Source: a virus
Reading direction: 5' to 3' (one strand)
IMG/VR virus record: IMGVR_UViG_3300032431_000004
Coordinates: 10,824-74,823 of that record
Length of the DNA stretch: 64,000 nucleotides
The notes under the pieces were generated by a model that worked only from the letters and a program-made list of their open reading frames with translations, ran no database searches and was not told the DNA's origin. The translations under genes and the position numbers were made by a program. Positions 12,049-62,261 of this stretch are shown piece by piece; position 1 is the first letter of the stretch; the number at the start of each line of letters is the position of its first letter.

Positions 12049-12365
12049 TCGCTACAGATAGGTTAGGGGAGCGCGATCGCCCCTAGCAAAGCCCCCAAAA
12101 GCGATCGCATGTAGAGAATAACCGAAATCGTAGAGAGCGGCGAAAAATGGGCGATAGGATGGCGATAGCGATCGCATGTACGCGTTTGTAACCATTACTA
12201 GGCAACGGTTACAGCAGTCAAACAGCTTCCTGAGTACGCGTTACTAGAACCTGTTGCAAGGTCAAACACCTTGCAAGTAGAGAGCCTTTAGAATCGCTAG
12301 AATCCCTTGTAGCTCAACGCTTGCCCCTTGCAACCTAGAGAGAACAGGGCAGCCAGAAGGCAGGT

Positions 12366-12490
12366 AAAAACAGGCAGTGTCATGTTGACTGTCATACTTT
12401 TGGCAACACATTCTAAGCCTTGCTGAGCATGAGTTAGAAGCCTGCCGTCGCAGCGTCACTGACATCTAGTAGTTTTAGGTTTGCTGCCAA
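12366..12490 (+). repeat. Palindromic dispersed element, copy 1 (left arm only)
   Basis: aaaacaggcagtgtc-atgtt-gactgtcatacttttggcaacac...ctgccgtcgcagcgtcactgacatctagtagttttagg. Confidence 0.9.
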
Positions 12491-12764
12491 AGACTTAAGA
12501 TGGCAGCGATCGCCCATGTTAGGAAAAAAGGAATGCTTGCAGGCTTCTGGTTTTGCTTCAATAGCTATCTAGACTGGCATCGGTTAATGGTTCAGGCGTA
12601 CAACCAGTCGTTTAATCAGTTCAAATTTTTCAGATGCTTAGGGCAAACCGAATGGTTGACTTGAGGCAGCAATCGGCAGGCAGCGCTGCGCGATCGCCCA
12701 TAGCTTCATTTTCTTTAGCCGCCTGATTTGGGCGGCTTTCCTTTGGGCGATCGCGTTTTTCGCT

Positions 12765-13064
12765 AAAAGTAGGCAGTGTCATGTTGACTGTCATACTTTT
12801 GGCAACATACTCTAACCCATACTCAGTAAAGCTTAGACACCTGCCGTCGCACTGTCATTGGCATTAAGAGTTTTAGATTCTGAGATTAGGATTATCTCTA
12901 AGAAGATTAGATATTTAATTCAGTGAATTAATAACTCTGAATCCTCTCCTATTTTGAAATCAGAAAAATCAATGACAGTGCGACGGCAGGCATCTAAGCC
13001 ATATATACCAAGGCTTTAAGTGTGTTGCCAATTTGTTGACTGTCACGTAGACACTGCCTGTTTT
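12765..13064 (+). repeat. Palindromic dispersed element, copy 2 (full, ~300 bp)
   Basis: ~100-bp imperfect inverted arms around an AT-rich centre ttaattcagtgaattaa. Confidence 0.95.
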
Positions 13065-13094
13065 TTTGGGGATTCTAGCAGCTGAGACTACCCC

Positions 13095-13260
13095 TAAAAA
13101 GACTCAGGTATTTAATCCAATAGATTGAATACCTGAGTCTTCCCTTATTTTGAAATCGTAAAAGTCAATGACGCTGCGACGGGAGGTGTCTAACCCATAC
13201 TCAGCAATACTTTAACCCTGTTGCCAAAACAATGACAGTCACGTAGACACTGCCTGTTTT
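13095..13260 (+). repeat. Palindromic dispersed element, copy 3 (centre + right arm)
   Basis: Central hairpin aagactcaggtatttaatc/gattgaatacctgagtctt, then arm ending gacactgcctgtttt. Confidence 0.9.
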
Positions 13261-18065: not shown

Positions 18066-18165
18066 CGTTTTTGCCTTTTGCTGCTTACTTTTATAGTATG
18101 TCACAAAAAGAGTGGGAATAGTGGGAAGTTTCATATTGACTGCGTGAAGATGTGCGATCGCGCTT

Positions 18166-18463
18166 AAAAGAGGCAGTGTCAACATGACTGTCATACTTTT
18201 GGCAACACACTCTAAGACTTACTGAGTATGGGCTAGACACCTGCCGTCGCACTGTCATTGGCATTAAGAGTTTTAGGTTTACTGCCAGAGTTCCCACTAA
18301 AAAGATTCAGGCATTTAATCTCAGCAGATTAAATGCCTGAATCTTCTCCTATTCTGAAATCACAAAAGTATGTGACGCTGTGACAGCAGCCTTCTAAGGT
18401 ATACGTATCAGGGCTTTAGGTATGTTGCCAAAACAATGACAGTCATGTTGACACAACGCTTTT
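18166..18463 (+). repeat. Palindromic dispersed element, copy 4 (full)
   Basis: Inverted arms; perfect 19-bp central hairpin aagattcaggcatttaatc/gattaaatgcctgaatctt. Confidence 0.95.
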
Positions 18464-19517: not shown

Positions 19518-19632
19518 ATTTCAAAATCACAAAAGTCTGTGACGCTGTGACAACACAACTCTAGTGTATACATACCAATACTTTAGGTGTGTTGCCAAAC
19601 TAATGACAGTCATGTTGACACTGCCTGTTTTT
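19518..19632 (+). repeat. Palindromic dispersed element, copy 5 (right arm only)
   Basis: aaatcacaaaagtctgtgacgctgtgac...gttgccaaactaatgacagtcatgttgacactgcctgttttt. Confidence 0.9.
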
Positions 19633-19637
19633 CACCT

Positions 19638-19677
19638 AAAAACCCCCTCAGAGAAACTGTTCTCTGAGGGGGTTTTT
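19638..19677. terminator. Bidirectional terminator
   Basis: Perfect 18-bp stem aaaaaccccctcagagaa/ttctctgagggggttttt between convergent genes. Confidence 0.85.
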
Positions 19678-27856: not shown

Positions 27857-28596
27857 TGGCATTACTTTATGGGATTGGATCTTTCGACTTTCTCACTCTT
27901 GGCCTTACGCCAGAACGCTTGCTACCAGTTGAGCCGATGGAGTTTACGTTGGCGGGTGAAAGCACTAGCAAAACCTCCACTAAATTCAAAGATGGCATCT
28001 TGGTAACTGCGGGAACGGCTCAGGCTGGAGAGACTTTTACTCTGACGATTGGGATTGAGGCGGTGAACTGGCTATCGTTGCAATTTGCTTATGGTGAACT
28101 TGCAGGCACTACCGCTAGCATCGCACTGCCAACCCTCAAGTATGCTACGATTCCCGCCCTAACCCCGTTTGAGATTATTGATACGGATCTGACGTCCTTG
28201 ATTGTTTACGCAACGAACTTGGCAAGTGGAATCCCACTGACTCGTGTTGTTGGAGTACCTGCGGCGTCAGGAGAATTCCAAGTAGTGACGGGCACAACTA
28301 GATTAATCTTCCACTCTTCTGACGCTGGAAAAGCGATCGCGTATCGTACGTTCAAAGCGTATACGAATGTTTCAACCATCGGGGTTGAGGCAGTTGCTAC
28401 AACCCTGTCAAATTTCCAATTCAGCGGAGTTTGCTACAACGACGAAGAAAAATACGAGCTGGTCATCCCCAGAATGGGGAAAACGAACATCCCTTCGCTG
28501 GGCATTTCTGATGTTACGAAATTGGACGTTGAATTCCAGCTGGCGCTAACGGGTTCTAACCGTAAAGTATTCCAGCTGATCAAGCTACCTGCCTAA
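27856..28596 (+). CDS. Major tail tube protein
   Basis: Position, beta-rich Thr/Gly composition; no sheath gene, so siphovirus. Confidence 0.7.
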   Translation: MALLYGIGSFDFLTLGLTPERLLPVEPMEFTLAGESTSKTSTKFKDGILVTAGTAQAGETFTLTIGIEAVNWLSLQFAYGELAGTTASIALPTLKYATIPALTPFEIIDTDLTSLIVYATNLASGIPLTRVVGVPAASGEFQVVTGTTRLIFHSSDAGKAIAYRTFKAYTNVSTIGVEAVATTLSNFQFSGVCYNDEEKYELVIPRMGKTNIPSLGISDVTKLDVEFQLALTGSNRKVFQLIKLPA

Positions 28597-29237
28597 TGTA
28601 TCTGGAATTCTCGCCACGAGCTGAGTTTGTAGATCGACTTGGCATTACCCGTCGCGTTGCCCTGTGTTCCCTCATAGGGCAACAAGAGTTCTTTGAGCGC
28701 ATCACTGAAATAGCCAGCCTGTTAGGTGATGCTGATGCTGGCGAAAGCTGGCAGGAGCTATATGCGAAAAGCGATCGCTTTCAATTTCTGTCTAAACGAT
28801 GCCTTGAGCTAAATGGCATCGATCCTGAATGGCTAACTCTAAACGACCTAGAACCCCTACTAATTGGTCAGGGGGATGAGCCGGGGTGGCTAGTAACGCT
28901 CAACACCCCTAAGCCTGCCGAAGGCAAGGAGAGGGGGCAAAAGGATAGTGCATCACTAGCTGAGATTGTGGCCGCGATTGGTTCAATGACTGGCTCAATT
29001 GAAGAGGGTTTGAGGCTGGTAGCGACATTGCCAGCCCCGGTGCTATTGGAGATTCTAGAGGCACGGGTAGACCAAACGCGATCGCCAGAAGAGAAACAAA
29101 AGGCAGACTTTAAGAAACGCAAGCCCGACCTCCTGAAGGCGCTGAAGGAAGTTCAGGAGCGCCACAAAGCTGAATATCTAGCAGGAATGAACGATGGTAG
29201 CCAACACGACAGCGGTGATCCGGCTCAGCCTCAATAG
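28596..29237 (+). CDS. Tail assembly chaperone
   Basis: Between tube and tape measure. Confidence 0.55.
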   Translation: MYLEFSPRAEFVDRLGITRRVALCSLIGQQEFFERITEIASLLGDADAGESWQELYAKSDRFQFLSKRCLELNGIDPEWLTLNDLEPLLIGQGDEPGWLVTLNTPKPAEGKERGQKDSASLAEIVAAIGSMTGSIEEGLRLVATLPAPVLLEILEARVDQTRSPEEKQKADFKKRKPDLLKALKEVQERHKAEYLAGMNDGSQHDSGDPAQPQ

Positions 29238-32200
29238 CGATGCTGTCGATCGTGATGCAAAGGCATTAGCGGAGAGCCTGAAACGGACGCTTGGCAGTAT
29301 CAAAATAAACAGTAAGCTAATCGATCTGGGCAATGCACCGGATGAGATTACGCGGCTAACTGCCAGCATTAAACAGCTTCAGTCAGCATCGGCAGATCCA
29401 AAGGCAGCTGCTCAGCTTCAAAAAGAAGCGCAGATCTTGCAAGAGCAGCTGCGCTATAAAAAAGAACTGGCTGCCATTGAGGGGGCGGGTTTTGGGACTG
29501 AAGATGCTGCAAATGCGCGGGCACTGGCGGCTGAACTTAGTAAGTTAAACCTCCAAAAGATTGCCTCTGACTTTGACAAGCTAGGGAACGCAGCGGCTAC
29601 GGCGGCGGCAAAGGCGAAGGCGATTGAAAACAGTAGCCAGAATACATCTGCGCTGGCGACATCGCTAAACCGTAGCTTCACAGCAGCTCAGCAGTTTGCA
29701 GGCGGGTTAGGGCTGACAGCTCAGAAGGCCAATGAAGCGATCGCCAAACTGAGGGAATTGGATACGGTTGGCGCTACCAATGCCCAAAAATTTGCGGTAT
29801 TGAACAAAGAGCTTGGCATCACGCAACAGCAATTTGGATCACTCAATAGTGCAGCACTGCAAACCAGGGAAGGGTTGACGGCAGTTGCAGGTGGTGCGGC
29901 TGCGATCGCGGCTGGCATTGCCGGGGTATTCGTTAAAGGCACTCAAGAATTTTTAGCATTTGACAATGCAATCCGTCAGTCTGGCGTCATTAGTGGGAGT
30001 CTAGGGACACCTCAGTTTGAAGCGCTAAGGGCAGAAGTTGAGCGGTTAGGGATCGCAACGACAAAGACCCCGGCTCAAATTGCTGAAATGAGTATCAGCC
30101 TTAGCCGCGCTGGCTTCACTGCTGAAGAAACGTCTGTGGCGCTTGCGGGGATTGTTCAAGCTTCAGAAGCTACCGGGGAGAACCTTGAGGTCGTTGGCGA
30201 TATTATTTCAAGGACAGTACGGACGTTTAGCAAAGATATTGGGGAAACGCAAGATGTAGCCGACTTGCTAGTTCAAACGGCTAACTCTACAAATACCTCT
30301 GTCCGGAGTCTAGGGGAATCCCTCTCCTATGTGGGAACTTCTGCGGCAACCAGCAACCAGCCGTTAGACGATACGTTAATTCTTTTGGGTCTGCTAGGGG
30401 ATGTTGGACTAACCGGAAGTGCAGCCGGAACAACACTTGCAGAAACGATAGAAAGGCTTAAAATTGCTAGCGCCGGTGCGGAAACTGAGTTCAGCGGATT
30501 GGTGCGAGGAAGCGCAAAGGCGTCGCAGGCTTTTAACGTTATTGGAGCTTCAGCACGAAATACAGACGGCAGCATGAAGTCGGTGCTTGAAATCTTGCCT
30601 GAGATAAAAGCTAATTTAGCTGGCTTATCTCAGGTTGATCGGGATGTTGTCACAAAAGCGTTATTTGGGACTCAAGGGGCTAGAACTGTCAATGCGTTTC
30701 TTGCAGCCACTCCTGAACGCATCGCGGCTGTAACAGAAGAAGTCAAGAACTACAGCGGGGCATCCGCTAACGCCAGCGAAGAACTAAGACAGGGACTAGG
30801 AGGGGCAATCAATCTATTTACAGGCTCCCTCAGTGCAGCGGCTACAGAAGCGGGGCAATTTGTAGCAGTAGGTTTAGAGCCTGTAGTCAGGGCGGCAACT
30901 GGACTTCTAAATACGTTCCTTGGACTGCCAGCGCCCATCCAAGGATTTATCCTTGCCACTACCGCGCTGACAGGCGCGATCGCCGCTGCTGTTGCGGTTA
31001 TTGCCACCTATCAGCTGCTAAATATCCAGCTATTAGCAGTGCAGGCCGCAGAAACCTTAGCGATGATTGCAACTACAATTGCTACGAAAGGGGCGACGGC
31101 GGCGCAGCTGCTTTTTAATACTCAGATATCAATCACGCAGGCTAGGTTGATTGCTACTAGGGCAGCTTTGGCTGTAGGAGCGATCGCAAAATTAGCTTTT
31201 GCGGCAGCAACCGGTGGAGCTGCTGGGGCAATGGGAGCCTTTGCCGCTTCACTTGCTGCTGTAGCGCCTTTACTGATCGTGATAGCGGCTGGCATTGCTG
31301 GCATTAAGTTTGCTCAGTATGCCAATGAATTAAGAGAAGCTAACGACGCGATCGCCCAATCGTCAACATCAGTAGAATCTGCCAGCACAGAAGCATTCGC
31401 CGCAGCAAATCGCACTAAGGCAGCTACCGACAAATTAAATGAAGCAAGGTTGTCGGGGCAATCGGTTACCCAAAGCGAACTGGACGACGCAAAGAAGCTG
31501 ACTGAAGCCAATGACGCCAGACTAAAGGGACTGCAGGAACAGCTTAAGCAGGTTGAAGCGATCTCCGTAGCCGGTGGGAGTGACGAGCAAAAAGCCAGTC
31601 AAGACGCGCTGACACAAACCATTAAAACTAGTATTGGGGCGCTTGAAGGGCAAAACAAAAAGCTAAAAGAATCGATCGGGTTAAGGGAAGGAGTTACTGA
31701 TAGCATCGAAAGCCTGTCAGCAGGGTATGACGAACAACTTTCTGAACTTGAAAGGTTCAATCAGCAGAGAGAGCTTAGCGCTACCGAAGCCTTAGCCGCT
31801 GGCAATATCACAGAAGAGAAAGCCCGCGCTGACAACCTTATTGCTGAGCAGAATTATTTATCGCAGCGGATCGCGCTAAACGAATCAAAGCTTGCTGAGT
31901 TAGAAGCTGCTAGAGGCTCCGCAACTGACGCAGAATCACTCAAAAAAGCAGGTGAAGAAATTGTAAAAGTTGAAGCAACTATCGCGGGCGATCGCCTGAA
32001 GGTTGCTCAAAACTCATTGGCGGAAAGGCGGCGGCTGCAAGAGGAAGAGGTGAAGGAATTGGCGATCGCTGAAACCGAAGCTCAAACAGCGATCGCAACC
32101 GCACGAGCGTCTGGCAGCATCACCGATGGAGAAGCTAACATTCGTAGGCTAGCGGCAACACGCGATCGCATTGCTGGTGAGCTAGCCCTTGAAATAAAAG

Positions 32201-33807
32201 GCTCGGCAGATAAACAAAAGATTGCTCAACTTGAATTGCAATTAGTTGAGAACGCAGCGGCACAACAAGAGGCTGTTGAGGCTGAATCCCTGAACCGCAT
32301 TGCCAAAGCGACCCAGGAAGCTAACCGGCAGATTGAAGCATCGCAGAACGAACGGATTGCAGCCGTCAAGCAAGCTCAATTAGATGGCGTTGCTACTGAG
32401 GAGGAAGCTGCTAGGCAGATTGCTGACATCCAACGCAGCGGCACCGGGGAAAAGGTACAGGCAGTTGAGGATGAACTAGCAGCCCTAAGGGCGGCGCGGG
32501 CGGCGGGTACTGTTGATACTGAAACCGGAGCTGAAAAGGAAGCTGAGTTGATTCAGCAACTAGGCCAGCTCAGCCTACAGCGATTAGATGACGAACTGGC
32601 TGCCAGAAAGGCTGTGCAGGAAGAGGCGATCGCAGCCATCCAACGGGAACTAGCCGCAAGCGATCGCGCTGCTGGACGCAAGATAGCAGGGCTAGAGCGG
32701 CAGGTAGCGGCGCAACAGCAGGTAGAGGCATCGTTACAGCGTCAGTCTGATTTACTGTCGTCTCAGGCCAGCCTATCGCAAGCACTGAGCAATCTAGACC
32801 AGGTGCGATCGCAATCCTCAGTTGATAGATTCAGCCGTGCGCTTGAAATCCAGCAACGGCTCAATAGTGGAGAAGTAGAATCGGCACAGGTACAGCGGGC
32901 ATTGCAGCAAGAACTATCGGGGCTAGGGGTTAGCCGTGGAGCAAGTGAGCTGAGCATTATTCGCCAGCGTCAAGCTGAAGAGGATCGGCTTGCTGCAATC
33001 CAACGGGTTGCCCTTTCTGCTAGACAGACTCAGGAACGGGCATCACTTGAGCTTGAAACTAGACGCAATCAGCTGGTATCGCAACGTGCGGTTGTGGAGT
33101 CGCAGATCGCTGAAATTCAGGCACGGCAGAATCAAAATACTGCACAGGCATCGTTAAGGGAAGCACAGGTAACAGGCAATGCTGACCAGATAGCGGCGGC
33201 ACAAGCTGATGTCGAATTAGCGCAGCAGTCTACCGACCTAGCAGGTCAATCACGGCTGATTGCTCAAGAGAATGCTACAGCACAAGCCGCGATCGCTACC
33301 AATGCCAATGCTGCCTTACTCGCTCAACAAGCGGCTGAGTTGGTGCAAACTAGGGCAGCTGAGCAAGCAAGGCAATATGCTCAAGCATTGGCAGCGGCAG
33401 AGGCAAGTAGCGCAGGTATCGCTAGGAATCTAAGCGGCGGCACACCACAGGCACGGCGCGATGGTGGTGGCGTGAAAGCTGGCGCTCCTTACTTGGTTGG
33501 GGAAGCTGGCCCTGAGCTGATTACCCCTAGGCGTAGCGGATGGGTGTGGACGGCGCAACAAACTGCTGAAATGCTAAAGGCAAGTGTACCCAAAAGTTTT
33601 ACAGGCGGGGTAGCGATCGCGCCTGCGTCTAACCCAACATTGCCACTGCTCAAAGAAATTAGAGGGCTGCGAGCTGACCTAAAAGCGTTAGATCGCCCAC
33701 AACAAAACAATAACTTCACATTGGTAAACGAAGAAGACCCGTACGACAAAGTGGTCAAGACCGCCAGTGCATTGCTGAGGGGGCGGATTCAGAGCTTGGG
33801 GTTGTGA
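29194..33807 (+). CDS. Tail tape measure protein (TP901-type core)
   Basis: 1537 aa Ala/Gln-rich coiled coil, TTKTPAQIAE...L.RAG core, hydrophobic segment, C-terminal YLVGEAGPEL. Confidence 0.95.
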   Translation: MVANTTAVIRLSLNSDAVDRDAKALAESLKRTLGSIKINSKLIDLGNAPDEITRLTASIKQLQSASADPKAAAQLQKEAQILQEQLRYKKELAAIEGAGFGTEDAANARALAAELSKLNLQKIASDFDKLGNAAATAAAKAKAIENSSQNTSALATSLNRSFTAAQQFAGGLGLTAQKANEAIAKLRELDTVGATNAQKFAVLNKELGITQQQFGSLNSAALQTREGLTAVAGGAAAIAAGIAGVFVKGTQEFLAFDNAIRQSGVISGSLGTPQFEALRAEVERLGIATTKTPAQIAEMSISLSRAGFTAEETSVALAGIVQASEATGENLEVVGDIISRTVRTFSKDIGETQDVADLLVQTANSTNTSVRSLGESLSYVGTSAATSNQPLDDTLILLGLLGDVGLTGSAAGTTLAETIERLKIASAGAETEFSGLVRGSAKASQAFNVIGASARNTDGSMKSVLEILPEIKANLAGLSQVDRDVVTKALFGTQGARTVNAFLAATPERIAAVTEEVKNYSGASANASEELRQGLGGAINLFTGSLSAAATEAGQFVAVGLEPVVRAATGLLNTFLGLPAPIQGFILATTALTGAIAAAVAVIATYQLLNIQLLAVQAAETLAMIATTIATKGATAAQLLFNTQISITQARLIATRAALAVGAIAKLAFAAATGGAAGAMGAFAASLAAVAPLLIVIAAGIAGIKFAQYANELREANDAIAQSSTSVESASTEAFAAANRTKAATDKLNEARLSGQSVTQSELDDAKKLTEANDARLKGLQEQLKQVEAISVAGGSDEQKASQDALTQTIKTSIGALEGQNKKLKESIGLREGVTDSIESLSAGYDEQLSELERFNQQRELSATEALAAGNITEEKARADNLIAEQNYLSQRIALNESKLAELEAARGSATDAESLKKAGEEIVKVEATIAGDRLKVAQNSLAERRRLQEEEVKELAIAETEAQTAIATARASGSITDGEANIRRLAATRDRIAGELALEIKGSADKQKIAQLELQLVENAAAQQEAVEAESLNRIAKATQEANRQIEASQNERIAAVKQAQLDGVATEEEAARQIADIQRSGTGEKVQAVEDELAALRAARAAGTVDTETGAEKEAELIQQLGQLSLQRLDDELAARKAVQEEAIAAIQRELAASDRAAGRKIAGLERQVAAQQQVEASLQRQSDLLSSQASLSQALSNLDQVRSQSSVDRFSRALEIQQRLNSGEVESAQVQRALQQELSGLGVSRGASELSIIRQRQAEEDRLAAIQRVALSARQTQERASLELETRRNQLVSQRAVVESQIAEIQARQNQNTAQASLREAQVTGNADQIAAAQADVELAQQSTDLAGQSRLIAQENATAQAAIATNANAALLAQQAAELVQTRAAEQARQYAQALAAAEASSAGIARNLSGGTPQARRDGGGVKAGAPYLVGEAGPELITPRRSGWVWTAQQTAEMLKASVPKSFTGGVAIAPASNPTLPLLKEIRGLRADLKALDRPQQNNNFTLVNEEDPYDKVVKTASALLRGRIQSLGL

Positions 33808-34526: not shown

Positions 34527-35297
34527 TCAGGTCAGATCCATTTCCATCTGCCAGCCATCACCATAGAATTCATTGCACAATGCCCTGAAATTATCCTTTG
34601 ACCCTCTAGACAGCCCCATGAAGGTGTCTAGCCTGACCACGTGGGGAGCAAGCCTATCACGGATCTCTTCTGGTAGGAATTGGTGAATCTTGTGCCTGCG
34701 AATCCCATTCTGAGGAGGGTTTAGCTGGTTGATTTTTGCCTTTTCTTCAGCCGTCATCCAACTGTAGACAAACTTCCAATAGCCACTGCCGCCAAACCAG
34801 CCAAAAAACGGACGGCAAAATTTAGGATCAAAGAAGATCTCCCACGGCGCGGCTTCATCCAAGATGCGATCGATTGACCGATGCGATTCTGGGGCTGATA
34901 TGTACCGCTCTGGTAACCATCCCGTCTGAGTTTGGATGTAGGAGGTCAAGCCAATGTTGACAGTCGCAGGCAGAACGTCTTGAGCCTTTTCCCTTCCCTC
35001 AAACGCATAGTGTTGGATGACTGCCGCGCAAAAGTCTGACGGCCAAGCGCTGATTTTCCCACCATTCTTTGCGAACTTGGTACGCAGGTCTAAAGCTTTG
35101 CCTGTAAACGGTTCTAGAGATCTAGATACCTTTTTGGTACGCAGCGATTCTAGGAGTTTTCGGATGCTCCCTTCACTAACTCCACAGGCTCTAGCTATAC
35201 CCCGCTGGCTCATGAAGGAAGCCCCGGTAGCTACAACCGTAAAATACTCAACACCATTGATTTCTGATTTCAAAAACTCTAAGCTTGTTACAGCCAT
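34527..35297 (-). CDS. Antirepressor-like DNA-binding protein (P63C-like C-terminus)
   Basis: NGVEYFT..MSQRGIARACG HTH; W...F...F, R.HKIHQFL. Confidence 0.65.
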   Translation of the reverse strand: MAVTSLEFLKSEINGVEYFTVVATGASFMSQRGIARACGVSEGSIRKLLESLRTKKVSRSLEPFTGKALDLRTKFAKNGGKISAWPSDFCAAVIQHYAFEGREKAQDVLPATVNIGLTSYIQTQTGWLPERYISAPESHRSIDRILDEAAPWEIFFDPKFCRPFFGWFGGSGYWKFVYSWMTAEEKAKINQLNPPQNGIRRHKIHQFLPEEIRDRLAPHVVRLDTFMGLSRGSKDNFRALCNEFYGDGWQMEMDLT

Positions 35298-35437
35298 CGG
35301 TCTACCTCTACTAGATTGTGGTCAGCGATCGCACCAAGGTAACAACTCAGTGCGATCGCGCTTCTCTAATTATATGCTGAAATCTCCCTCTGGCATTACC
35401 GCTAGGGGGATTTCTACTTTAAAGCCAATTACCCTCT

Positions 35438-35739
35438 AAAAACAGGCAGTGTCTACATGACAGTCAACAAATTGGCAACACACTTAAAGCCTTGGTATAT
35501 ATAGGTTAGATGCCTGCCGTCGCACCGTCACAGACTTTTCTGATTTCAAAATAGAACAGGATTTAGAGTTATTAATTCAGTAAAATAAATATCTAATCCT
35601 CTTAGAGGTAATCCTTGGCAGCAAACCTAAAACTACTAGATGCCAGTGACGCTGCGACGGGAGGCATCAAGCCTGTGCTGAGTATGGGTTTAACCCTGTT
35701 GCCAAATCCATGACAGTCAACATGACACTGCCCCCTTTT
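35438..35739 (-). repeat. Palindromic dispersed element, copy 6 (full, inverted)
   Basis: Same arms; centre reversed (gatttcaaaatag...aaacctaaaactactaga). Confidence 0.95.
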
Positions 35740-35829
35740 AGCCAAAATGCGATCTGCAAACAGCGCTTCGCGATCGCCCATAGCCTCCAACTGGAATATA
35801 GTGGAAAGCGATCGCGCTTTTGAGGCAAC

Positions 35830-36336
35830 ATGGCACGCTGGCAAGTCAGGATTAGGCAACCCGCATCGGCCACCCCGGTCATCCCTGAACTGGTGTTGGA
35901 CACTTTTGGGGAAGATGGCTATAACCGATCGCAGATTCAGCAGGTGAACCTCAGAGACTTCACGGTTGGCGGATCAGCCATCATCAGCGGTGCCACGTAT
36001 CCCTATCGCTACACATGGGCGATCGCGTGTCAGGTTTCAGAAGATGACGCGCTGCAATTGGAGGCGCTGGTAATTTGGCAAGACAAGCGATATGCCGCAG
36101 GGTTAGACGGGCGACTGAGGTTGATAGATGAGGTAGAGCTTTTGCCACCAGAAGCCGCGCCACATTCCAAAACGCTCATTGCTCCTGAAACGAATTCCTA
36201 TGGGTTTCTCCGTGGGTTTGGCAGCTTCAATGTGAAAATAAGCCTACCTGATAGCCACAAGACTCATGTGGGGAGAAGTGCTGAGGATGGCCTACCAGTG
36301 AAGCTGCTTCAGTTCAGTGCGGTAGAGTTGCCCTGA
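35830..36336 (+). CDS. Distal tail (Dit)-like protein
   Basis: Position after TMP, size, beta-rich. Confidence 0.5.
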   Translation: MARWQVRIRQPASATPVIPELVLDTFGEDGYNRSQIQQVNLRDFTVGGSAIISGATYPYRYTWAIACQVSEDDALQLEALVIWQDKRYAAGLDGRLRLIDEVELLPPEAAPHSKTLIAPETNSYGFLRGFGSFNVKISLPDSHKTHVGRSAEDGLPVKLLQFSAVELP

Positions 36337-36376
36337 TGGGCTATTGTGAATAGGAATTTAATGAGGTTTTCTATAT

Positions 36377-37003
36377 ATGCTGAGTAGTCCTGAAAATATT
36401 CAAACGACTGAGGAATGGATCGCTCAACTCTCAGAGGCTACCGGGAAGAGCTTTGAGATAGTGGGAGATATTCTCTTAAGGACGATGCGGACGTTTTACA
36501 AAGAAATTGGAGAAACCTATTTACTAGCTGATCAGCTAGTTGCGGTGATCAGCTCAACCAATACCTCAATCTTAGGATTGGGTGAGTCCTTAGCTTTCGT
36601 AGGGCCGATTGCTGCCCTTATGAACCAGCCACTAGATGACGTTCTAATCCTGCTAGGTCTGCTGGGAGATGCTGGCATTGAGGGGAGTATGGCGGGCATA
36701 GGCTTGATGGCTGTCTTAAATCGACTTCAAGTTACGTCGGCAGCGGCAGAACCAGAATCCATTAAGAGAACTTTTGATATCGTCAGCGCTTCTGCCAAGA
36801 ATAGCGACGGATCAATGAGATCCGTTTTAGAAATACTTCCAGAGCTTCGGGGAAGCATTGGCAAGCTATGGCAAGCTGAGCAAGGCATTTTGATGGAGGC
36901 ATTGTTTGGGGTAGAAGGCGCACCAGTTTTTCAGGCATTGTTCAATACAACTCCAGAACATGTCGCGATCGTTACCAGTCGAGTCAAGAGCGCTGGCAGG
37001 TAG
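36377..37003 (+). CDS. Stand-alone paralog of the tape measure core domain
   Basis: SEATG..E.VGDI..RT.RTF, STNTS...LGESL, NQPLDD.LILLGLLGD, DGSM.SVLEILPE, ALFG match TMP 30163-30747. Confidence 0.85.
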   Translation: MLSSPENIQTTEEWIAQLSEATGKSFEIVGDILLRTMRTFYKEIGETYLLADQLVAVISSTNTSILGLGESLAFVGPIAALMNQPLDDVLILLGLLGDAGIEGSMAGIGLMAVLNRLQVTSAAAEPESIKRTFDIVSASAKNSDGSMRSVLEILPELRGSIGKLWQAEQGILMEALFGVEGAPVFQALFNTTPEHVAIVTSRVKSAGR

Positions 37004-37070
37004 CCGCACCTGAACACCGAAGGAGAGTAGTGGGTTATTCTGAATGGAAATTTAACGAGGTTTCTTACGT

Positions 37071-37466
37071 ATGCTGAGCAGTTCTGGAGAGAATTTAGAC
37101 GCCGCTGAAATGGTCGTTGCCAGTCAGATCAGGATAGTAGATGAGCTACAGCAAAAAGCGATCGCAGATCCGCTGAATATTAATATTGCCACAGCTTTGA
37201 GCGCCCATTCTGCTACGCTCTCTTCGCTGTGGAGCATGATTTTTGTTAGGGGGGAGGAACTGGCGATGGAGCTGAGTAATGAGGGTTATCCCTTGGCAGA
37301 AGCCCCGAGACTAAATGGCGAGGTTCTACAATCACGGAGCGATGGCGGTTCAATACCTGCGGACTTCCCTCTCAGGCTAGGAGAGTCTGGCCCCGAGTTA
37401 TTCTATCCTTGGGAGCGCTTATCTACTGGTGAAATTGGCATTGTCAAAAATATTTCATGGGGCTAA
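37071..37466 (+). CDS. Protein with TMP C-terminal motif; leader shared with 36377
   Basis: RSDGGSI...LGESGPELFYP vs TMP RRDGGGV...VGEAGPELITP. Confidence 0.65.
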   Translation: MLSSSGENLDAAEMVVASQIRIVDELQQKAIADPLNINIATALSAHSATLSSLWSMIFVRGEELAMELSNEGYPLAEAPRLNGEVLQSRSDGGSIPADFPLRLGESGPELFYPWERLSTGEIGIVKNISWG

Positions 37467-37710
37467 ACCGATGGGTATCGAAAACACAAGCAAGCCGACA
37501 GGTGAAAACGATCGCATTTGGAGAGGCCACATCGTTAGCCTAGGCAAGGAATATCAGCGCTGTGAGTCTTCAGGCGCAAGGGATATTTGGTATTGGCGGT
37601 TCGTTTTAGACGTTGCCACTTGGGCACTTGACCAATGCAATAAGCGATTGAGCGCACCGGTACTCAGAACATGGCATTATCAAAAAGAATTGAAACGCGA
37701 TCGCACATGA
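37451..37710 (+). CDS. Hypothetical protein
   Basis: In-operon ORF, ATGA coupling downstream; start uncertain. Confidence 0.45.
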
Positions 37711-38246
37711 AATATTTTCTTGACACCGAATTTATTGAAGACGGCACCACTATTGACTTGATCAGCATTGGTCTGGTGTGTGAGGACGGGCGGGAATTCT
37801 ACGCCGAAAACTCTAGCGCCGACCTTTCAAAGGCTGGGGAATGGGTGGAAGCGAATGTGTTGCCGTTGCTTTGGTCTAGAAGCGCAGACAAGGAAAAAGC
37901 AAGCCTGTGGAGCCGTGATGGCGTGGCTGGCGGATTGCTGACCCACAAAGAGATAGGCTCGGCAATTCGGCTGTTCATACCGGAAGATGACAAGCCTGAG
38001 TTTTGGGCTTATTACGCAGACTATGACTGGGTAGCCTTTTGCCAGCTATTCGGAACAATGATGGATTTGCCAGATGGATTTCCTATGTACTGTCGCGATA
38101 TCAAGCAATGGTGCGACCAGCTTGGCAGCCCTGATCTGCCTAAGCAGGATGGGACAGAACACAATGCTCTTGAGGATGCCCAGTGGACATTAGAGGCTTG
38201 GGAATTCTTGAACGCAATTGACCTAACCCCTAATGTCACTCCTTAA
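37707..38246 (+). CDS. DEDDh 3'-5' exonuclease (DUF5051/Rv2179c-like)
   Basis: FLDTEF, DLISIGLV, YADYDWV, HNALEDA. Confidence 0.88.
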   Translation: MKYFLDTEFIEDGTTIDLISIGLVCEDGREFYAENSSADLSKAGEWVEANVLPLLWSRSADKEKASLWSRDGVAGGLLTHKEIGSAIRLFIPEDDKPEFWAYYADYDWVAFCQLFGTMMDLPDGFPMYCRDIKQWCDQLGSPDLPKQDGTEHNALEDAQWTLEAWEFLNAIDLTPNVTP

Positions 38247-40290
38247 CCAGCTTGCCCGTAACTGCACAGTATCGATCGCCTATGCCAACGGCACGGGTAG
38301 CCTCAGTGTGACTGCTCAGCTAATCGATCTGGTGGTTAGCAACTCCCACTTAGATGAGAGCGGGCTGATAAAGGTCACGGGGAAGCTGACGCTAGCAGGC
38401 CGGAGGGTGGTCGGATTCAGTGAAGAGCTAGACCCACGCATAAACCGTAGTCGGTGGCTGCGCGGCAATCGAATCACTGTGCAGATAGCTGATAGTACCG
38501 GGGCGCTCGTTCCACATCCTAGAGGGGCGCTGCGTATCCTCAAGACACCGCCGCCGCCATCGCTTGACGGTGGCAACTTAGAAATCGAAGTAGGTTGCGA
38601 TCTTACCTACTTTGATAGCCCTGGGTTGCCAGAGAGCAATATTGACGCATCGCCAACCTTCCCTGCTGTCTTGACACGGGCGATCGCAATCAATTACCTA
38701 GCTGACAAGATTGGCGCGCCATTACTGATTGATAGCATCCCTGAATATCCGCTGGCTTATCTACCGTCTGACCTTGACGGCAGCCGCATCGCTCAAATGG
38801 GCGGGCTAGCATTTGTAGCCGGTTATGTGCTGTGGATGGATGGCGATCGCGCCTTGAGGGCAACGCGGATAGATGTAGAGCGATCGCCTGACTATACCTA
38901 CTCAGCAATATTAGACGCCAGCAGTTTTGAATTTCGGCCTGCCGACGAAACCACGGCAGAAAACGTAACGGTAGTTGCCCCGATGGCAACGCGAACAATA
39001 TTTGAGGTAGATCCCCCTCGCACCGACACAACCGAAGAGGGCAACTATAAAGAAACTGTCACGACTTCGATCAATGGCGACGTCTATTTTGTGGAAAGCA
39101 GGAAACAGCTAAAAGATTTATTCCCTACTATTTACCCGAATAATCGGGCAATGGCGATCGCCTCTACCACAACCAGGTCAGAATCGTATTCAACTGAGAT
39201 GAGGTTAGACAGTGAAGAGGAGATGACGCGATCGCCCCAGGGCGTAGTACTGCCAACATTATTTCCCGGCAGCACTACGCTGATTGATTCTGAACGAACT
39301 GTTACAAATTACGAATATCAGAACGGGGCAACCTACAAAATCTCAGTGTTGAGCTATCGCCCTGCTGGGGTAGCATTCCCATTTGATCCGCTCTACCCGG
39401 TGCCGACTGCATTGGTGTTGGTAGAAACGGATGTAAAACGATGGGATGTTTTCCGAGATGGGTATCAGCTGACGCAAACTAAATTAGATTTGACTACTCG
39501 CAAATCAGAAGCCACTACCGATTACAGCTCAACCGAATACACGCCGCCAGCGCCAAAGTACAAAAAGGCAGATTATGACCAAGAAGAAACTCCTACTGCG
39601 GGCGGCGCTGAATTTGAGCAGGATGGCGGCACGGATAGCGGGCTAGGGCGATCGCGTGTCTACAGCGTGACAGGCTCCATCAGCAGCCCTCAGCAGGCCG
39701 TAGAGCTAGCCAAAACGTTAGGACAAATCCTCTATGCCAGAGGATACCCCGTGAGTTGGTCAACTGCCATCCCTGACACGATGCTCTCCAGCTATAGCCC
39801 TCTGAGGGTGTGGAAGTGGATAGATCCTAACTGCACATCGCGGTATATGGCAGATGGTGACGCATTTGCGATCGCGCCTGATGAGGCTACATTTGCCGCT
39901 GATGGCTTGTTCCTAGGCACTGAGAATACACCGGGGGTTGTTGATCCACCCTATCGGTTCAAGCTAAAAGGGACGCTGGCGATCGGCTCGTCTTCAGTAT
40001 TTGACCTGTCAGTGGTAGAGGATGCGTTGCTACTGGGCACCGTGGCGATCGGCTCGTCTTCAGTATTTGATCTGTCGGTTGTAACAGCTGCCGGGATGTC
40101 TGGCGTATTGGCGATCGGCAGCTCTAGCACGTTTGACCTGTCGGTTACGGAACCATCTGTACTGATTGGGTCAATGGCTTCTGAGACGACAGCAACCTTT
40201 GATTTATCTGCTACGCAACCACCTCCGCTACTTGGAGTGATGGCTTCTGAAACGACAGCGACGTTTGACCTGTCTGCTACGCAACCTTAA
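38233..40290 (+). CDS. Tail tip/baseplate hub protein with C-terminal repeats
   Basis: Position; five ~21-aa repeats G.LAIGSSS.FDLSV / G.MASETTATFDLSA. Confidence 0.65.
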   Translation: MSLLNQLARNCTVSIAYANGTGSLSVTAQLIDLVVSNSHLDESGLIKVTGKLTLAGRRVVGFSEELDPRINRSRWLRGNRITVQIADSTGALVPHPRGALRILKTPPPPSLDGGNLEIEVGCDLTYFDSPGLPESNIDASPTFPAVLTRAIAINYLADKIGAPLLIDSIPEYPLAYLPSDLDGSRIAQMGGLAFVAGYVLWMDGDRALRATRIDVERSPDYTYSAILDASSFEFRPADETTAENVTVVAPMATRTIFEVDPPRTDTTEEGNYKETVTTSINGDVYFVESRKQLKDLFPTIYPNNRAMAIASTTTRSESYSTEMRLDSEEEMTRSPQGVVLPTLFPGSTTLIDSERTVTNYEYQNGATYKISVLSYRPAGVAFPFDPLYPVPTALVLVETDVKRWDVFRDGYQLTQTKLDLTTRKSEATTDYSSTEYTPPAPKYKKADYDQEETPTAGGAEFEQDGGTDSGLGRSRVYSVTGSISSPQQAVELAKTLGQILYARGYPVSWSTAIPDTMLSSYSPLRVWKWIDPNCTSRYMADGDAFAIAPDEATFAADGLFLGTENTPGVVDPPYRFKLKGTLAIGSSSVFDLSVVEDALLLGTVAIGSSSVFDLSVVTAAGMSGVLAIGSSSTFDLSVTEPSVLIGSMASETTATFDLSATQPPPLLGVMASETTATFDLSATQP

Positions 40291-40307: not shown

Positions 40308-41162
40308 ATGCCTAGCTCGATTTCTGGATTTCTCGCAGGTGAATTATTACGTCTAGTTTTCAACAATTTTGGTGGGCACGAACCTCTTCCAACTATTTAT
40401 ATTGAGCTTCTGACAGCAGCCCCCAACAACTATTTTTATGGTGGAGGTAGCATACAAGGTTCAAGCCTTAGCAGGCTAGCGATCGCCAACAATTCAACTA
40501 ATTTCCCATCAGCCTCAACAATTGGATTGGTAACGCAAAAAGTTAATGGAACCACACTAAGTTTTGGCACGGCTGGCAGCGCCCTGTCTTTTGTAGGCTT
40601 TGGCTTTTATGATTCTGCTACAGGTGGCACATGGCTTGGAGGTGGAAGCTTCACGGTGCCATTAGATTTTGCGTCAGGAGTAGCTGTGACGATCGCCCCT
40701 GGAGGCGTTGCTATTGGCATCAACACCGCTAGCGCAGGGGGCTGCTCAGGCTATGTATGCCGTAGAATGCTAGACCTAGCTTTTGGAGCTGTAGCCTATA
40801 CTAAACCGAGTAATTTTGGCGCATATTTCACAACCGCGCCAAACTACGCTACTGGTGCGGGTGGTGTTGAGGCGGCAGGCGGCGGATATTCCCGTGTCGA
40901 AACTACTGGGGCAGGCGGCATCAATGACGGTAATGAACAGATTTTTGCATCTTCATCACTTCCGATTGACTCTAATATCATTTTTGCAAATCCCACAGCT
41001 GACCAAGGCACAGCAGTAGCGGGTGGAATATTCGATGCTGCTAGCGGAGGGAATCTGTTATGCGGTGGAGATCTTGCAGTGCCAAGAAACCTAGTTTCAG
41101 GATCTACTGGCGTTTTCTTTGAAGTGTATTCAATCCAAGTAAGAATCTTGTCTGTAGATTAA
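40308..41162 (+). CDS. Tail protein with two tandem domains
   Basis: YDSATGGTWL / FDAASGGNLL; paralog of 41172..42026. Confidence 0.75.
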   Translation: MPSSISGFLAGELLRLVFNNFGGHEPLPTIYIELLTAAPNNYFYGGGSIQGSSLSRLAIANNSTNFPSASTIGLVTQKVNGTTLSFGTAGSALSFVGFGFYDSATGGTWLGGGSFTVPLDFASGVAVTIAPGGVAIGINTASAGGCSGYVCRRMLDLAFGAVAYTKPSNFGAYFTTAPNYATGAGGVEAAGGGYSRVETTGAGGINDGNEQIFASSSLPIDSNIIFANPTADQGTAVAGGIFDAASGGNLLCGGDLAVPRNLVSGSTGVFFEVYSIQVRILSVD

Positions 41163-41171
41163 CCGGAGATA

Positions 41172-42026
41172 TTGACCATGCCAAGCGCGATCGCACGTAC
41201 ACTGTCGGGATCTCTTCTAAATCATGTATTTGGGAATACTGCCTACACCCCGCTGGGCACCATTCATGTAGCGGTGCTGACAACCAGCGCATCCGACTGG
41301 ACAGTGGGCACCGGGGCAGTGCAGGCAGCTGGCGTTGCTAGAGTTGCGCTCGTCAATAATTTGACCAACTTCCCGGCAGCGGTAACGGCTGGCACCCTGA
41401 CCAGCAAAGGTAACGGAATAGCGATCGCATTCGGGAACGCCCCGGCGAACCTAAGCCTAGTTGGATTTGCCCTGTACAGCGCGGCTAGTGCAGGGGTATG
41501 GCTAGGGGGTGGGACGCTAAATGCACCGCTAGCAGTATCTAGCGGCAGCCCGATTAGGTTTGATGCTGGCACCATGACGATCCGAGGGAGTTCAAGTGCG
41601 GGCGAACCGAGCGGGTTCCTTTTCCGCAGGCTATTAGATCTTGCTTTTGGTTCTGCCGCTTATGCAGCGCCGGCTAATATATTTGGAGCGTATTACACTA
41701 CCGCACCAAGCAACGCTACAGGCACAGGTGGTATTGAGCCAGGTGTAGGAGCATATGCCAGAGTGAGCAGAGCAAATAACACAACCAACTTCCCTAGCGC
41801 TACTGGCGGCACTGTGGCCACCAAAACTTGTGCTACTGACATTGCGTTCCCAAATCCAACGGCTCCACAGGGCACCGCAGTAGCAGGCGGACTGATTGAT
41901 GCTGCTACTGCGGGGAATCTATTATGGTCAGGAGCTTTGGTTAGCAATCGGGTAGTTAGCACCACCACCACTGAGGTCAAATTTACTGCAAATACGATCG
42001 CACTTAATATCACCCCGGTATCGTAA
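41172..42026 (+). CDS. Tail protein with two tandem domains
   Basis: Paralog of 40308..41162; NNTTNFP, DAATAGNLL. Confidence 0.75.
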   Translation: MTMPSAIARTLSGSLLNHVFGNTAYTPLGTIHVAVLTTSASDWTVGTGAVQAAGVARVALVNNLTNFPAAVTAGTLTSKGNGIAIAFGNAPANLSLVGFALYSAASAGVWLGGGTLNAPLAVSSGSPIRFDAGTMTIRGSSSAGEPSGFLFRRLLDLAFGSAAYAAPANIFGAYYTTAPSNATGTGGIEPGVGAYARVSRANNTTNFPSATGGTVATKTCATDIAFPNPTAPQGTAVAGGLIDAATAGNLLWSGALVSNRVVSTTTTEVKFTANTIALNITPVS

Positions 42027-45983: not shown

Positions 45984-46730
45984 ATGGCAACACTCCACAT
46001 CATAAAGTCAACCTGGTTAAAACAGGCCGCTGTTCAGTCATCAGGGCTGTCAGACGGCAATAAATACGCCGCTAGCGCAGGTCAGACCTTTGAGCTGGCC
46101 AGCTTTGAGTCAATTGAGGATCTGTCAAAAAATGATGGGGACAGCCATGTCAAAATTTTCTTAGCTGAGCCAGTTAAAGAAAAAAGGACATGGTATGTTT
46201 TCCAGCGTGACGTTGCCATCATGGATGGCGATCGCGTTTTGTTCCCGTCGCCTGAAGACGATGAACGTACCGCCAACCGTAAGCTGGCGATCGCGCATGA
46301 CTATTCAGGAATTGTCTTGTGGCTACCCGGTGGGCGAAAGGTTCACTCTGACGAGCCGATTATTAAGTCTGGCAATTTCTCATGGGGTGAAGCTAGCCAC
46401 GGCGGCGAGCGCATCCCTAAAGACAAGCAGACGGTAGAACGTATAGTCAAGCTGGCGATCGCGCTTCAGGACGCTAGGGCGGCTATCGGTAGACCGTTCC
46501 GAATTACCTCATGGTATAGACCAGAGCCGTTCAACTCACGGGTGGGCGGGGCATCGCGATCGCAGCATCTAAATGGCGGTGCCGTAGACATTGTGGTTGA
46601 GGGCTACAGTGGCGCTCAACTGGCAAGGAAGATCAAACCATTCTGGCCTGGTGGCGTTGGGATCTATCCCGGTAACCGTAAACATATTCTGCACTTGGAT
46701 ATCGGAACTAAACGATCTTGGGGAGTCTAA
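45984..46730 (+). CDS. Endolysin, peptidase M15 family
   Basis: ITSWYR..N..VGGA..SQHL.G.AVD...LHLD zinc-peptidase motifs. Confidence 0.88.
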   Translation: MATLHIIKSTWLKQAAVQSSGLSDGNKYAASAGQTFELASFESIEDLSKNDGDSHVKIFLAEPVKEKRTWYVFQRDVAIMDGDRVLFPSPEDDERTANRKLAIAHDYSGIVLWLPGGRKVHSDEPIIKSGNFSWGEASHGGERIPKDKQTVERIVKLAIALQDARAAIGRPFRITSWYRPEPFNSRVGGASRSQHLNGGAVDIVVEGYSGAQLARKIKPFWPGGVGIYPGNRKHILHLDIGTKRSWGV

Positions 46731-47028
46731 AAACAGGCAGTGTCTACGTGACTGACATGCTTTTGGCAACACACTTAAAGCCTTGGTATATATGGACTAG
46801 ACACCTGCCGTCGCACTGTCATTGGTTTTTCTGATTTCAAAATAGGAGAGGATTCAGACTTATTAATTCACTGAATTAAATATTCAGATCTCTTAAGGGT
46901 GATCCTAGGCAGCAAACCTAAAACTACTAGATGCCAATGACGGTGCGACGACAGGTGTCTAACGCATACTCAGTACAGGTTTGAGTATGTTGCCAAAAGT
47001 ATGTCAGTCAACATGACACTGCACTAAT
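46729..47028 (-). repeat. Palindromic dispersed element, copy 7 (full, inverted)
   Basis: Begins within the endolysin stop codon; same arms and centre. Confidence 0.95.
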
Positions 47029-47043
47029 TCAGGGGGTTTCTAA

Positions 47044-57998: not shown

Positions 57999-58012
57999 GG
58001 CTAAATGCTGCT

Positions 58013-58313
58013 AAAAAGGGGCCGTGTCAACGTGACTGACATACTTCTGGCAACACCCTCTAGCTCTTACTGAGTATGGGTTAGATGCCTGTCGTCGCAG
58101 CGTCACCGGCATTAAGGGTTTTAGATCCTGAAACTAGGATTGCCCTTAAGAGATCTGAATATTTAATTCAGTGAATTAATAACTCTAAATCCTGTTCTAT
58201 TTTGAAATCACAAAAGTCTGTGACGGTGGGACAACACACTCCTAACCATTGGTATATATAGCTTAGAGGGTGTTGCCAAAACTATGGCAGTCACGTTGAC
58301 ACGGCGCTATTTT
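58013..58313 (+). repeat. Palindromic dispersed element, copy 8 (full)
   Basis: Inverted arms and conserved centre. Confidence 0.95.
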
Positions 58314-58356
58314 GGAAGGTGCTATAGCGCTTTTCAGGAATACTTTGGACAATCGC

Positions 58357-59990: not shown

Positions 59991-60005
59991 GGCTAAATGC
60001 CACTG

Positions 60006-60305
60006 AAACAGCGCAGTGTCTACGTGACTGACATACTTTTGGCAACACACTCAAACCCTTACTTAGCACGGCTTAGATGCCTCCCGTCGCAGCGTCACTG
60101 ACATTAAGGGTTTTAGATTCTGAGATTAGGATTAGTCCTAAGAGATCTGAATATTTAATTCAGTGAATCAATAACTCTAAATCCTGTTCTATTTTGAGAT
60201 CGTAAAAGTCAATGACGGTGGGACAACACACCTCTAAGCATTGATATATATAGTTCAGAGGGTGTTGCCAAAAGTATGTCAGTCAACATGACACTGCCTT
60301 GCTTT
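60006..60305 (+). repeat. Palindromic dispersed element, copy 9 (full)
   Basis: Inverted arms and conserved centre. Confidence 0.95.
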
Positions 60306-60347
60306 GGAGGGTGCATGGCACTTCTCAGAAATACTTTAGCTAATCGC

Positions 60348-61864: not shown

Positions 61865-62166
61865 AAAACAGGCAGTGTCATGTTGACTGACATACTTTTG
61901 GCAGCATACTCAAACCCTTACTGGGTATGGATTAGGTGCCTCCCGTCGCAGCGTCACTGACATCTAGTAGTTTTAGATCCTGAGATTAAGATTAGCCCTA
62001 AGAGATCTGAATATTTAATTCAGTGAATTAATAACCCTGAATCCTGTTCTATTTTGAAATCAGGAAAATCAATGACAGTGCGACGGCAGGCATCTAAGCC
62101 ATATATACCAACGCTTTAACCCTGTTGCCAAAAGTATGTCAGTCACGTTGACACGGCGCTATTTTT
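61865..62166 (+). repeat. Palindromic dispersed element, copy 10 (full)
   Basis: Inverted arms and conserved centre. Confidence 0.95.
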
Positions 62167-62261
62167 GGGAATTTTAGCGGCTGAGGCTATCCTAGTCAGA
62201 TTTCCCAGCCGTAATATTCCAGAGTTCTGGAATATCCAACATATTGATTCAGATTTAGCTG

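Follow-up and report, generated by a model that had tools for sequence, protein, structure and literature searches.

An uncultured phage has, within its late tail operon, two adjacent small genes that carry sequence related to its tape measure protein (TMP). They lie in a 64,000-nt stretch of IMG/VR virus record IMGVR_UViG_3300032431_000004 (positions 10,824 to 74,823; hereafter the window, to which all coordinates refer), between the genes for a minor tail protein (ORF168, 35830..36336, + strand) and a large tail-tip protein (ORF685, 38233..40290, + strand). The first, P0001 (36377..37003, + strand), is a chimeric open reading frame (ORF) of 208 aa in which an MLSS start is joined to ~200 TMP-core codons (PF10145). 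The second, P0002 (37071..37466, + strand), encodes a 131-aa protein with a TMP-like motif in its C-terminal part. The feature is real and unusual in its details: P0001 adjoins a genuine small accessory gene, P0002, and is itself most likely a dispensable orphan. As to its origin, we lean, with about as much doubt as confidence, toward a dispensable chimeric orphan formed by illegitimate or mosaic recombination in a variable accessory slot of the tail-tip module. The P0001 case consists of one metagenomic genome.

A preliminary description of this locus had presented both genes as fragments of the phage's own TMP, and the structural half of that proposal holds: two adjacent genes with TMP-derived sequence stand behind a duplicated leader. 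P0001 aligns with the TMP core as described, sharing 102 of 200 residues (51%; BLASTP E 2e-50) with aa 320-519 of the resident TMP P0003, its paralogous counterpart (30151..30750, + strand). P0003 itself is a 1537-aa protein (29194..33807, + strand) encoded downstream of head and connector genes and recognized by PF10145 at 108 bits over residues 280-492. Overall, P0001 covers residues ~306-519 of the TMP only, and scores 81.8 bits against a PF10145 PhageMin_Tail gathering threshold of 33.2, matching profile positions 37-201 of 201. Sixteen PHROG families also match it (best 5.5e-28), 12 of which are annotated as tail length tape measure protein. The AlphaFold2 model of P0001 is compact and all-helical, with ten helices (mean predicted local distance difference test (pLDDT) 85, predicted template modeling score (pTM) 0.84), and on this model the product is predicted to fold as a stand-alone domain. 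Foldseek returned no match for the model in the PDB at E ≤ 0.001; in a sequence-based comparison, a family profile including P0001 matched residues 300-503 of the TMP in PDB 9g8s (E 2e-14).

The likeness of P0001 to the TP901-family TMP core (PF10145; PDB 9g8s chain w, "Tail tape measure") thus lies in its all-helical prediction and its profile matches, while several features set it apart: it measures 208 aa vs 1,100-1,500, is not placed after tail chaperone genes, and has no N-terminal part, hydrophobic segment, coiled coil or C-terminal end. Accordingly, P0001 does not show the full TMP architecture and represents the core region alone. Nor is it conserved in the manner of a functional TMP. 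Among 54 core columns invariant across 12 TMPs, P0001 keeps 38, compared to 87-100% for real TMPs in a leave-one-out analysis, and a 9-residue block conserved in all aligned TMPs (EFSGLVRGS) is deleted; four of the 16 changes at invariant columns correspond to the MLSS junction.

Both genes open with a copy of the same leader, a duplication that had been noted before together with the shared MLSS starts and that our analysis bears out. Copy A (36337..36392, + strand) comprises a 40-nt spacer with GAGG (36363-36366), the ATG and codons 2-5 of P0001, and copy B (37031..37086, + strand) does the same service for P0002. The repeat is exactly 56 nt long and 80% identical, with 11 of 56 positions differing and no long exact word in common; it occurs twice in the window and in 0 of 100 shuffles. 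Its first base directly follows the upstream stop codon, and it extends, via the GAGG ribosome-binding site located ten bases 5' of the ATG, to codon 5. An extension of the repeat upstream into the end of ORF168 was considered and rejected (local score 14 vs a shuffle mean of 13.7). Between the P0001 stop and copy B lies a 27-nt spacer (37004..37030, + strand), which ends in a second TAG of the P0001 frame (37028-37030), directly abuts copy B, and does not significantly resemble the end of ORF168. Translational read-through from P0001 into P0002 was likewise rejected, as the frames differ and the P0001 frame contains two TAG codons. A promoter and terminator consensus scan of the window performed no better than shuffles and gave no hit in the leader, although cyanophage promoters may not fit the consensus; for P0001 itself, the scan gave no promoter or terminator exceeding chance.

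Next, we compared the locus with its relatives, namely four metagenome contigs (L005-L008) fetched as carriers of P0002 homologs. In all four, the P0002 homolog starts 40 nt after the ORF168 homolog, behind a single leader. The contigs are collinear with the window over 35288-36392 and then resume at 37031 (blastn), and the surplus of the window amounts to 694 nt, made up of a leader copy, the P0001 body with its TMP core, and the 27-nt spacer. The same 694 nt are skipped in Logan contigs of runs X4 and X8, which show the joins 36375>37070 and 36385>37080. Flanking sequences of the window and these P0001-less relatives are 6-9% divergent (91-94% identical). In a more distant relative, L009, the TMP gene is followed by a 161-aa gene and an 852-aa gene with nothing between. 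In broader searches, no P0001-like protein of 114-364 aa was found among 5.8 billion sequences, no relatives were recovered from viral-contig scans with P0001, P0002 and ORF168, nor from genome-contig scans with the P0002 family and ORF168, and no second phage with the core piece turned up in viral, metagenome or genome collections. Orthologs, whose absence the preliminary description had listed as evidence against its proposal, thus exist for P0002, but P0001 is missing from the four related contigs and from X4 and X8. Judged from these comparisons, P0001 is absent from relatives and hence most likely dispensable, and parsimony over the five lineages favors a single gain in the lineage of the window.

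Given that the P0001-bearing form was seen in a single sample, and that metagenome assemblies can be chimeric at repeats, a chimeric contig joining the phage to a foreign TMP through the repeated leader had to be considered. We regard such an assembly artefact as highly improbable. In Logan, where the probable source run was assembled independently, one 2,481-nt contig corresponds to 35550-38030 with 0 differences, and its depth across this interval is even at 11.4, equal to that of the flanks. Since a second assembler agrees at flank depth, and the leader repeats, at just 80% identity, have no long exact word in common, a chimera is unlikely. Both junctions are also tidy and in frame, which is not expected of a chimera.

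P0002, the neighbor of P0001, belongs to a conserved family of small accessory genes whose products combine a helical hairpin with a variable tail. Its five homologs (P0004-P0008) are 89-130 aa long and 61-93% identical. Across the N-terminal 80 codons, the ratio of non-synonymous to synonymous substitution rates (dN/dS) is mostly 0.06-0.24, with values up to 0.68 in the short 60-codon pairs involving L008; in pairs with dS > 0.15, the truncated L008 excluded, it is 0.14-0.24 (Fisher p 7e-5 to 8e-3). P0002 is therefore a member of a real small-gene family under purifying selection, whose position after ORF168 is kept in L005-L008. AlphaFold2 places helices at residues 5-32 and 37-70 (pLDDT 78-87), followed by an unstructured tail (pLDDT < 50). 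P0002 has no match in Pfam, PHROGs or PADLOC, and PADLOC is equally silent on P0001. A whole-library profile search recovered the family members together with weak matches to repeat proteins, of uncertain meaning. The strongest of these is a low-complexity 1,875-aa protein (E 3e-11), the others being at E ~1e-4, and over P0002 residues 30-96 the family profile weakly matches the NPSNLDVALSTRASESTLSGL-unit repeat proteins P0040 and P0042 (E ~1e-4) in 4-5 stretches each. This likeness to NPSNLDVALSTRASESTLSGL repeat proteins may reflect either a helical repeat common to both or a coincidence of composition.

The reported TMP C-terminal motif in P0002 was recovered as well, over ~30 residues only: 16 of 33 residues are identical (E 2e-7) to aa 1413-1445 of the resident TMP (33430..33528, + strand; RRDGG..GEAGPEL). 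When a motif profile built from four related TMPs was run against the 467 stop-to-stop frames of the window, the TMP and P0002 were the sole matches. With this profile, P0002 reaches E 1.6e-5 and P0004 E 0.04, and family members without a particular 28-codon segment are unmatched. That segment, an 84-nt in-frame indel (37320..37403, + strand), encodes the TMP-like motif; the window and L005 have it, whereas L006, L007 and P0007, three of five full-length members, lack it cleanly. Its dS is 0.80 vs 0.19 for the remainder of the gene, which suggests a separate history. From these alignments, the TMP-like motif is dispensable to the P0002 family, and no similarity to 31 TMPs is seen in the conserved N-terminal 80 residues (E > 0.26). 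The dN/dS comparison that had been proposed as a check thus gives a split answer: P0002 is under purifying selection, but its TMP-like motif is the dispensable part, and for P0001 the comparison with TMPs is saturated (see below).

The C-terminal end with this motif, which we call type-1, is carried by some related TMPs only. TMPs P0003 and P0009-P0019, with similar cores, bear two unrelated C-terminal modules, RRDGG..GE.GPEL or ..TPDPV..D...L.DI. Because similar cores bear these unrelated termini, TMP ends are exchanged within this phage group, and its TMPs are themselves mosaic.

Turning to the origin of the P0001 body, its closest TMP is not the resident one. The best match is P0009, from L009, at 211 bits, compared to 164 bits for the resident TMP, and in a maximum-likelihood tree P0001 is sister to P0009 and the phage's own TMP together, with moderate support (85/77), on a branch about five times as long (1.06 vs 0.22) and with a deviant amino-acid composition. 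Comparison with each TMP core tested gave a nucleotide identity of 49-57%, a saturated synonymous divergence (pS) of 0.75-0.80 and a non-synonymous divergence (pN) of 0.31-0.41; for the resident core specifically, nucleotide identity is 55-57% and pS 0.75-0.76. With synonymous sites saturated, dN/dS between P0001 and TMPs is uninformative. Sequence comparison, through the closer match to P0009 and the saturated synonymous divergence, indicates that P0001 was not recently copied from the resident TMP. The earlier attribution to the phage's own TMP therefore stands as far as TMP derivation goes, but not as to which TMP. At just 55-57% nucleotide identity with the resident TMP, P0001 is also unlikely to be a source of TMP variants, as had further been suggested. 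Saturation between P0001 and the resident TMP, set against flanks that are 6-9% divergent, further implies that their split is far older than the radiation with P0001-less relatives.

Two blocks of P0001, 36623-36698 and 36773-36848 (76 nt each), are ≥80% identical to contigs of runs X2 and X8, which beyond those blocks read as ordinary TMP (..VAKAS-NQPLDD.., ..LEILPE-KKNLSGLGQA). Over these two blocks, the resident TMP (58-64%) is therefore less close to P0001 than some other TMP lineage is. An exact 30-mer from the loose end of the TMP-like X8 contig was absent from viral contigs.

Under the explanation we favor, the slot would be the stretch between ORF168 and ORF685 in the late tail operon, with the P0002 family, whose proteins measure 98-131 aa, as its resident gene. 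In this phage only, the 56-nt spacer-plus-start (ribosome-binding site, ATG, MLSS) would have been duplicated within a cassette of ~694 nt, and the upstream copy of the start would have become fused in frame to ~200 codons of a foreign TMP core, yielding P0001. The core would derive from a TMP lineage whose distance to the resident TMP matches that of other cyanophage TMPs. The TMP-like motif at the C-terminus of P0002 would be a separate matter, a 28-codon patch polymorphic for insertion and deletion. Since P0001 inherited a working translation start inside a late operon, it is probably made late in infection, presumably as a soluble, acidic, all-helical stand-alone TMP core. Because it is dispensable and its constraint is altered, P0001 most likely has no function or a marginal one only.

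Several observations weigh against this explanation. First, the 11 differences among 56 leader positions exceed what is expected of an in-place duplication younger than the 6-9% flank divergence, so that either an import with an already diverged leader or an older origin is needed. Second, the absence in relatives could reflect repeated loss, as deletion between 56-nt direct repeats is easy. Third, the core followed by the C-terminal motif reproduces the order of the TMP at one small locus, a coincidence if the two were captured independently. Finally, the P0001 frame is open over 208 codons. In neutral simulations, an ORF of this length stayed open in 14-34% of cases at 0.05-0.1 substitutions per site, in ~3% at 0.2, and in 0.2% at 0.5; the intact frame is thus unremarkable if P0001 was gained recently, and needs selection if it is old.

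A relic of a second TMP is an alternative that we consider unlikely. It posits a partial paralog 3' of ORF168 that was reduced to P0001 and the P0002 motif, with relatives losing the core through the leaders; P0001 would then be old and kept open by selection in this lineage. The TMP-like order of core and motif, the synonymous saturation vs all TMPs, the leader copies being more diverged (80% identical) than the orthologous flanks (91-94%), and the need for selection to keep 208 codons open across such divergence all fit this view. At 8 of the 11 leader differences, moreover, both states are also found among the single leaders of the relatives, which is compatible with these being recombinant survivors; a single-crossover pattern in the relatives' leaders was sought and was not clean. 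However, at bases 13 and 15 of the repeat, copies A and B agree with each other against all four relatives, which favors duplication or conversion in this lineage. A second-TMP relic would also require at least two or three independent losses, or one deletion allele spread by recombination, and leaves unexplained why a second leader and start are placed between the pieces. Nor is it easily squared with the lack of TMP similarity in the N-terminal 80 residues of P0002 or with the failure to find the core piece in a second phage in any of the viral, metagenome and genome collections.

A different possibility is that P0001 has a function in conflicts with TMP-recognizing proteins. Avs18 senses a central helical TMP segment of ~130 residues, which is the most conserved region of the protein and is necessary and sufficient for activation (PMC13581612). 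P0001 is a stand-alone version of the most conserved region in this TMP clade. We infer that P0001 and the sensed segment coincide, and no Avs18 homolog or host is known for the phage. Tab targets the TMP C-terminal region and is countered by anti-Tab of Pseudomonas phage JBD26, which is encoded within the late operon (PMC10884400). Anti-Tab would share its place in the late program with P0001 and P0002; it differs in that it binds Tab and, in the portion of that report covered here (PMC10884400), is not described as TMP-derived. No Tab-like gene was identified in the window, and P0002, as said, is without a PADLOC match. SNIPE, a third example, binds TMPs (PMC13190303). The literature we found on Avs18 and TMP sensing describes no phage-encoded copy of the trigger, and searches of the literature aimed at TMP fragments that act as decoys or form genes of their own likewise came up empty.

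By analogy with these systems, late-expressed P0001 and the P0002 motif might bind TMP-recognizing host or prophage proteins and thereby shield tail assembly or injection or, in a variant of the idea, poison the tails of competing phages. Such mimicry would be in line with Avs18 sensing the conserved central helical part of TMPs (PMC13581612), given that P0001 is a PF10145 core with a predicted stand-alone fold, and with the recognition of the TMP C-terminus by Tab, whose antagonist sits in a late operon (PMC10884400), and of TMPs by SNIPE (PMC13190303). The intact P0001 frame with its inherited ribosome-binding site and start, and a BstA-like moron in the same variable region, point the same way. 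Yet P0001 is a singleton that none of the close relatives carries, three of five full-length family members have lost the P0002 motif but kept the remainder of the gene, a fragment resembling the sensed segment could equally trigger the sensor, and no TMP sensor is known in the host of this phage. We thus judge functional mimicry to be quite unlikely. Its most specific form, a self-mimicry anti-immunity in which P0001 would blind an Avs18-like receptor and the P0002 tail would distract a Tab-like sensor, seems to us very doubtful. The decoy role suggested in the preliminary description is accordingly possible by analogy to Avs18, Tab and SNIPE, and the published work on TMP sensing has made the idea more concrete but not more supported.

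The locus can also be compared with accessory genes of other phages. Like morons (concept in PMC6469090; an example, HK97 gp15, is cited in PMC10884400), P0001 is an extra gene among conserved tail genes and is variably present, with an exonuclease cassette and a BstA-like gene nearby. It differs from them in borrowing a duplicated ribosome-binding site and start, and in having a body drawn from a structural rather than a host-conversion gene. For P0002, a positional parallel is gpI of lambda, a small protein of the tail-tip lumen that supports the C-terminal helix of gpH (PMC10721106). The gpI gene lies between those of the distal tail protein and the large tip protein, its product contacts the TMP end, and the P0002 family occupies an equivalent position, a parallel of gene order. 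P0002 is not a core tip component, because it is absent from the related tail module of the L009 type.

The phage that carries this locus is represented by a 74.8-kb IMG/VR virus contig with an estimated completeness of 78%. The HIP1 word GCGATCGC, which is typical of cyanobacteria, is abundant in the window. The late module is of siphophage type, with protease, scaffold, major head protein and adaptor followed by the TP901-type TMP P0003; a putative tail chaperone is located at 28596-29237. Judged by its sequence, this is an uncultured, HIP1-rich siphophage of cyanobacterial type, and no isolated phage in GenBank closely matches the window. The resident TMP shares 88.6% nucleotide identity with its ortholog in L012 (pS 0.31, pN 0.04).

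The slot that holds P0001 lies in a region of considerable gene turnover. Between the TMP and the tail-tip genes, on the opposite strand, is a 256-aa moron with a BstA-like N-terminal domain (34527..35297, - strand; PADLOC BstA 2.5e-14, two-helix-turn-helix model 2.3e-33), which has a promoter-like site at 35396..35369 on the minus strand. This gene is conserved in L007, and L008 has a different 243-aa gene there. Downstream of P0002, an Rv2179c-like 3'-5' exonuclease (37671..38246, + strand; Pfam 2e-17, PHROG 7e-60) forms a presence/absence cassette: it is absent from L007 and from the joints 37704>38222 (X4, X8) and 37698>38222 (X2). Since L009 is gap-free, the exonuclease is variably present and the BstA-like gene is inserted, we consider the region from the TMP to the large tip gene a hotspot for accessory cassettes. 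The probable source run also contains another variant of the exonuclease site, whose left flank, at 37707, is different. In L007 (1-1374, - strand), the BstA-like gene is preceded not by the TMP but by a 458-aa TnpB/Cas12f-like ORF (PADLOC Cas12u2 8.5e-45); from its sequence, it is probably an insertion sequence element within the phage.

ORF168, the gene 5' of the leader, encodes a gpM/Dit-like minor tail protein with a dN/dS of 0.07-0.16 among five orthologs; its structural look-alikes are minor tail proteins with a Phage_min_tail or tube fold (template modeling score 0.55-0.82), which serves as a lead only. ORF79 (37471..37710, + strand; MGIEN...WHYQKELKRD) is a conserved partner downstream of P0002, with a dN/dS of 0.16-0.32, and is present in L005, L006 and L007. 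In L006, ORF79 is followed at 1835-2269 by an ORF with two more copies of the MGIEN...SGAR..W....CN..L..P.LR.WHYQKEL pattern, which by its sequence looks like a small repeated gene family. ORF685 closes the slot and has homologs in L007 (846 aa, 94%) and L009 (852 aa, 35%). Its C-terminal part contains about five 66-nt (22-aa) tandem repeats (39963-40286), and 3' of it lie two paralogous 284-aa genes (40308-41162 and 41172-42026) with a Gp80 fiber domain (Pfam 1e-30 and 1e-35).

Intergenic regions of the window harbor a palindromic element of ~300 nt with inverted arms of ~96 nt, in about ten copies (blastn). One copy is located upstream of ORF168 (35436..35741, no strand assigned; inverted arms of 96 nt), with repeated blastn matches window-wide, and is kept at the same spot 5' of ORF168 in L005-L008. 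Other copies are found at 12365-13260, 18154-18463, 19518-19640, 46726-47036, 58010-58329, 60000-60311 and 61865-62168. The element corresponds to no Rfam family, and a search of the window with Rfam yielded zero families.

Taken together, mosaic recombination in tail operons is ordinary, while the literature we found has no account of a stand-alone TMP core that is translated. P0001-bearing and P0001-less forms of the locus occur in different metagenomes, and the locus offers a clean natural example of one-step gene birth, in which a ribosome-binding site and start, once duplicated, became joined in frame to a foreign domain. An expressed P0001 would be a liability or else a decoy, and in both cases would inform how phages live with pattern-recognition immunity.

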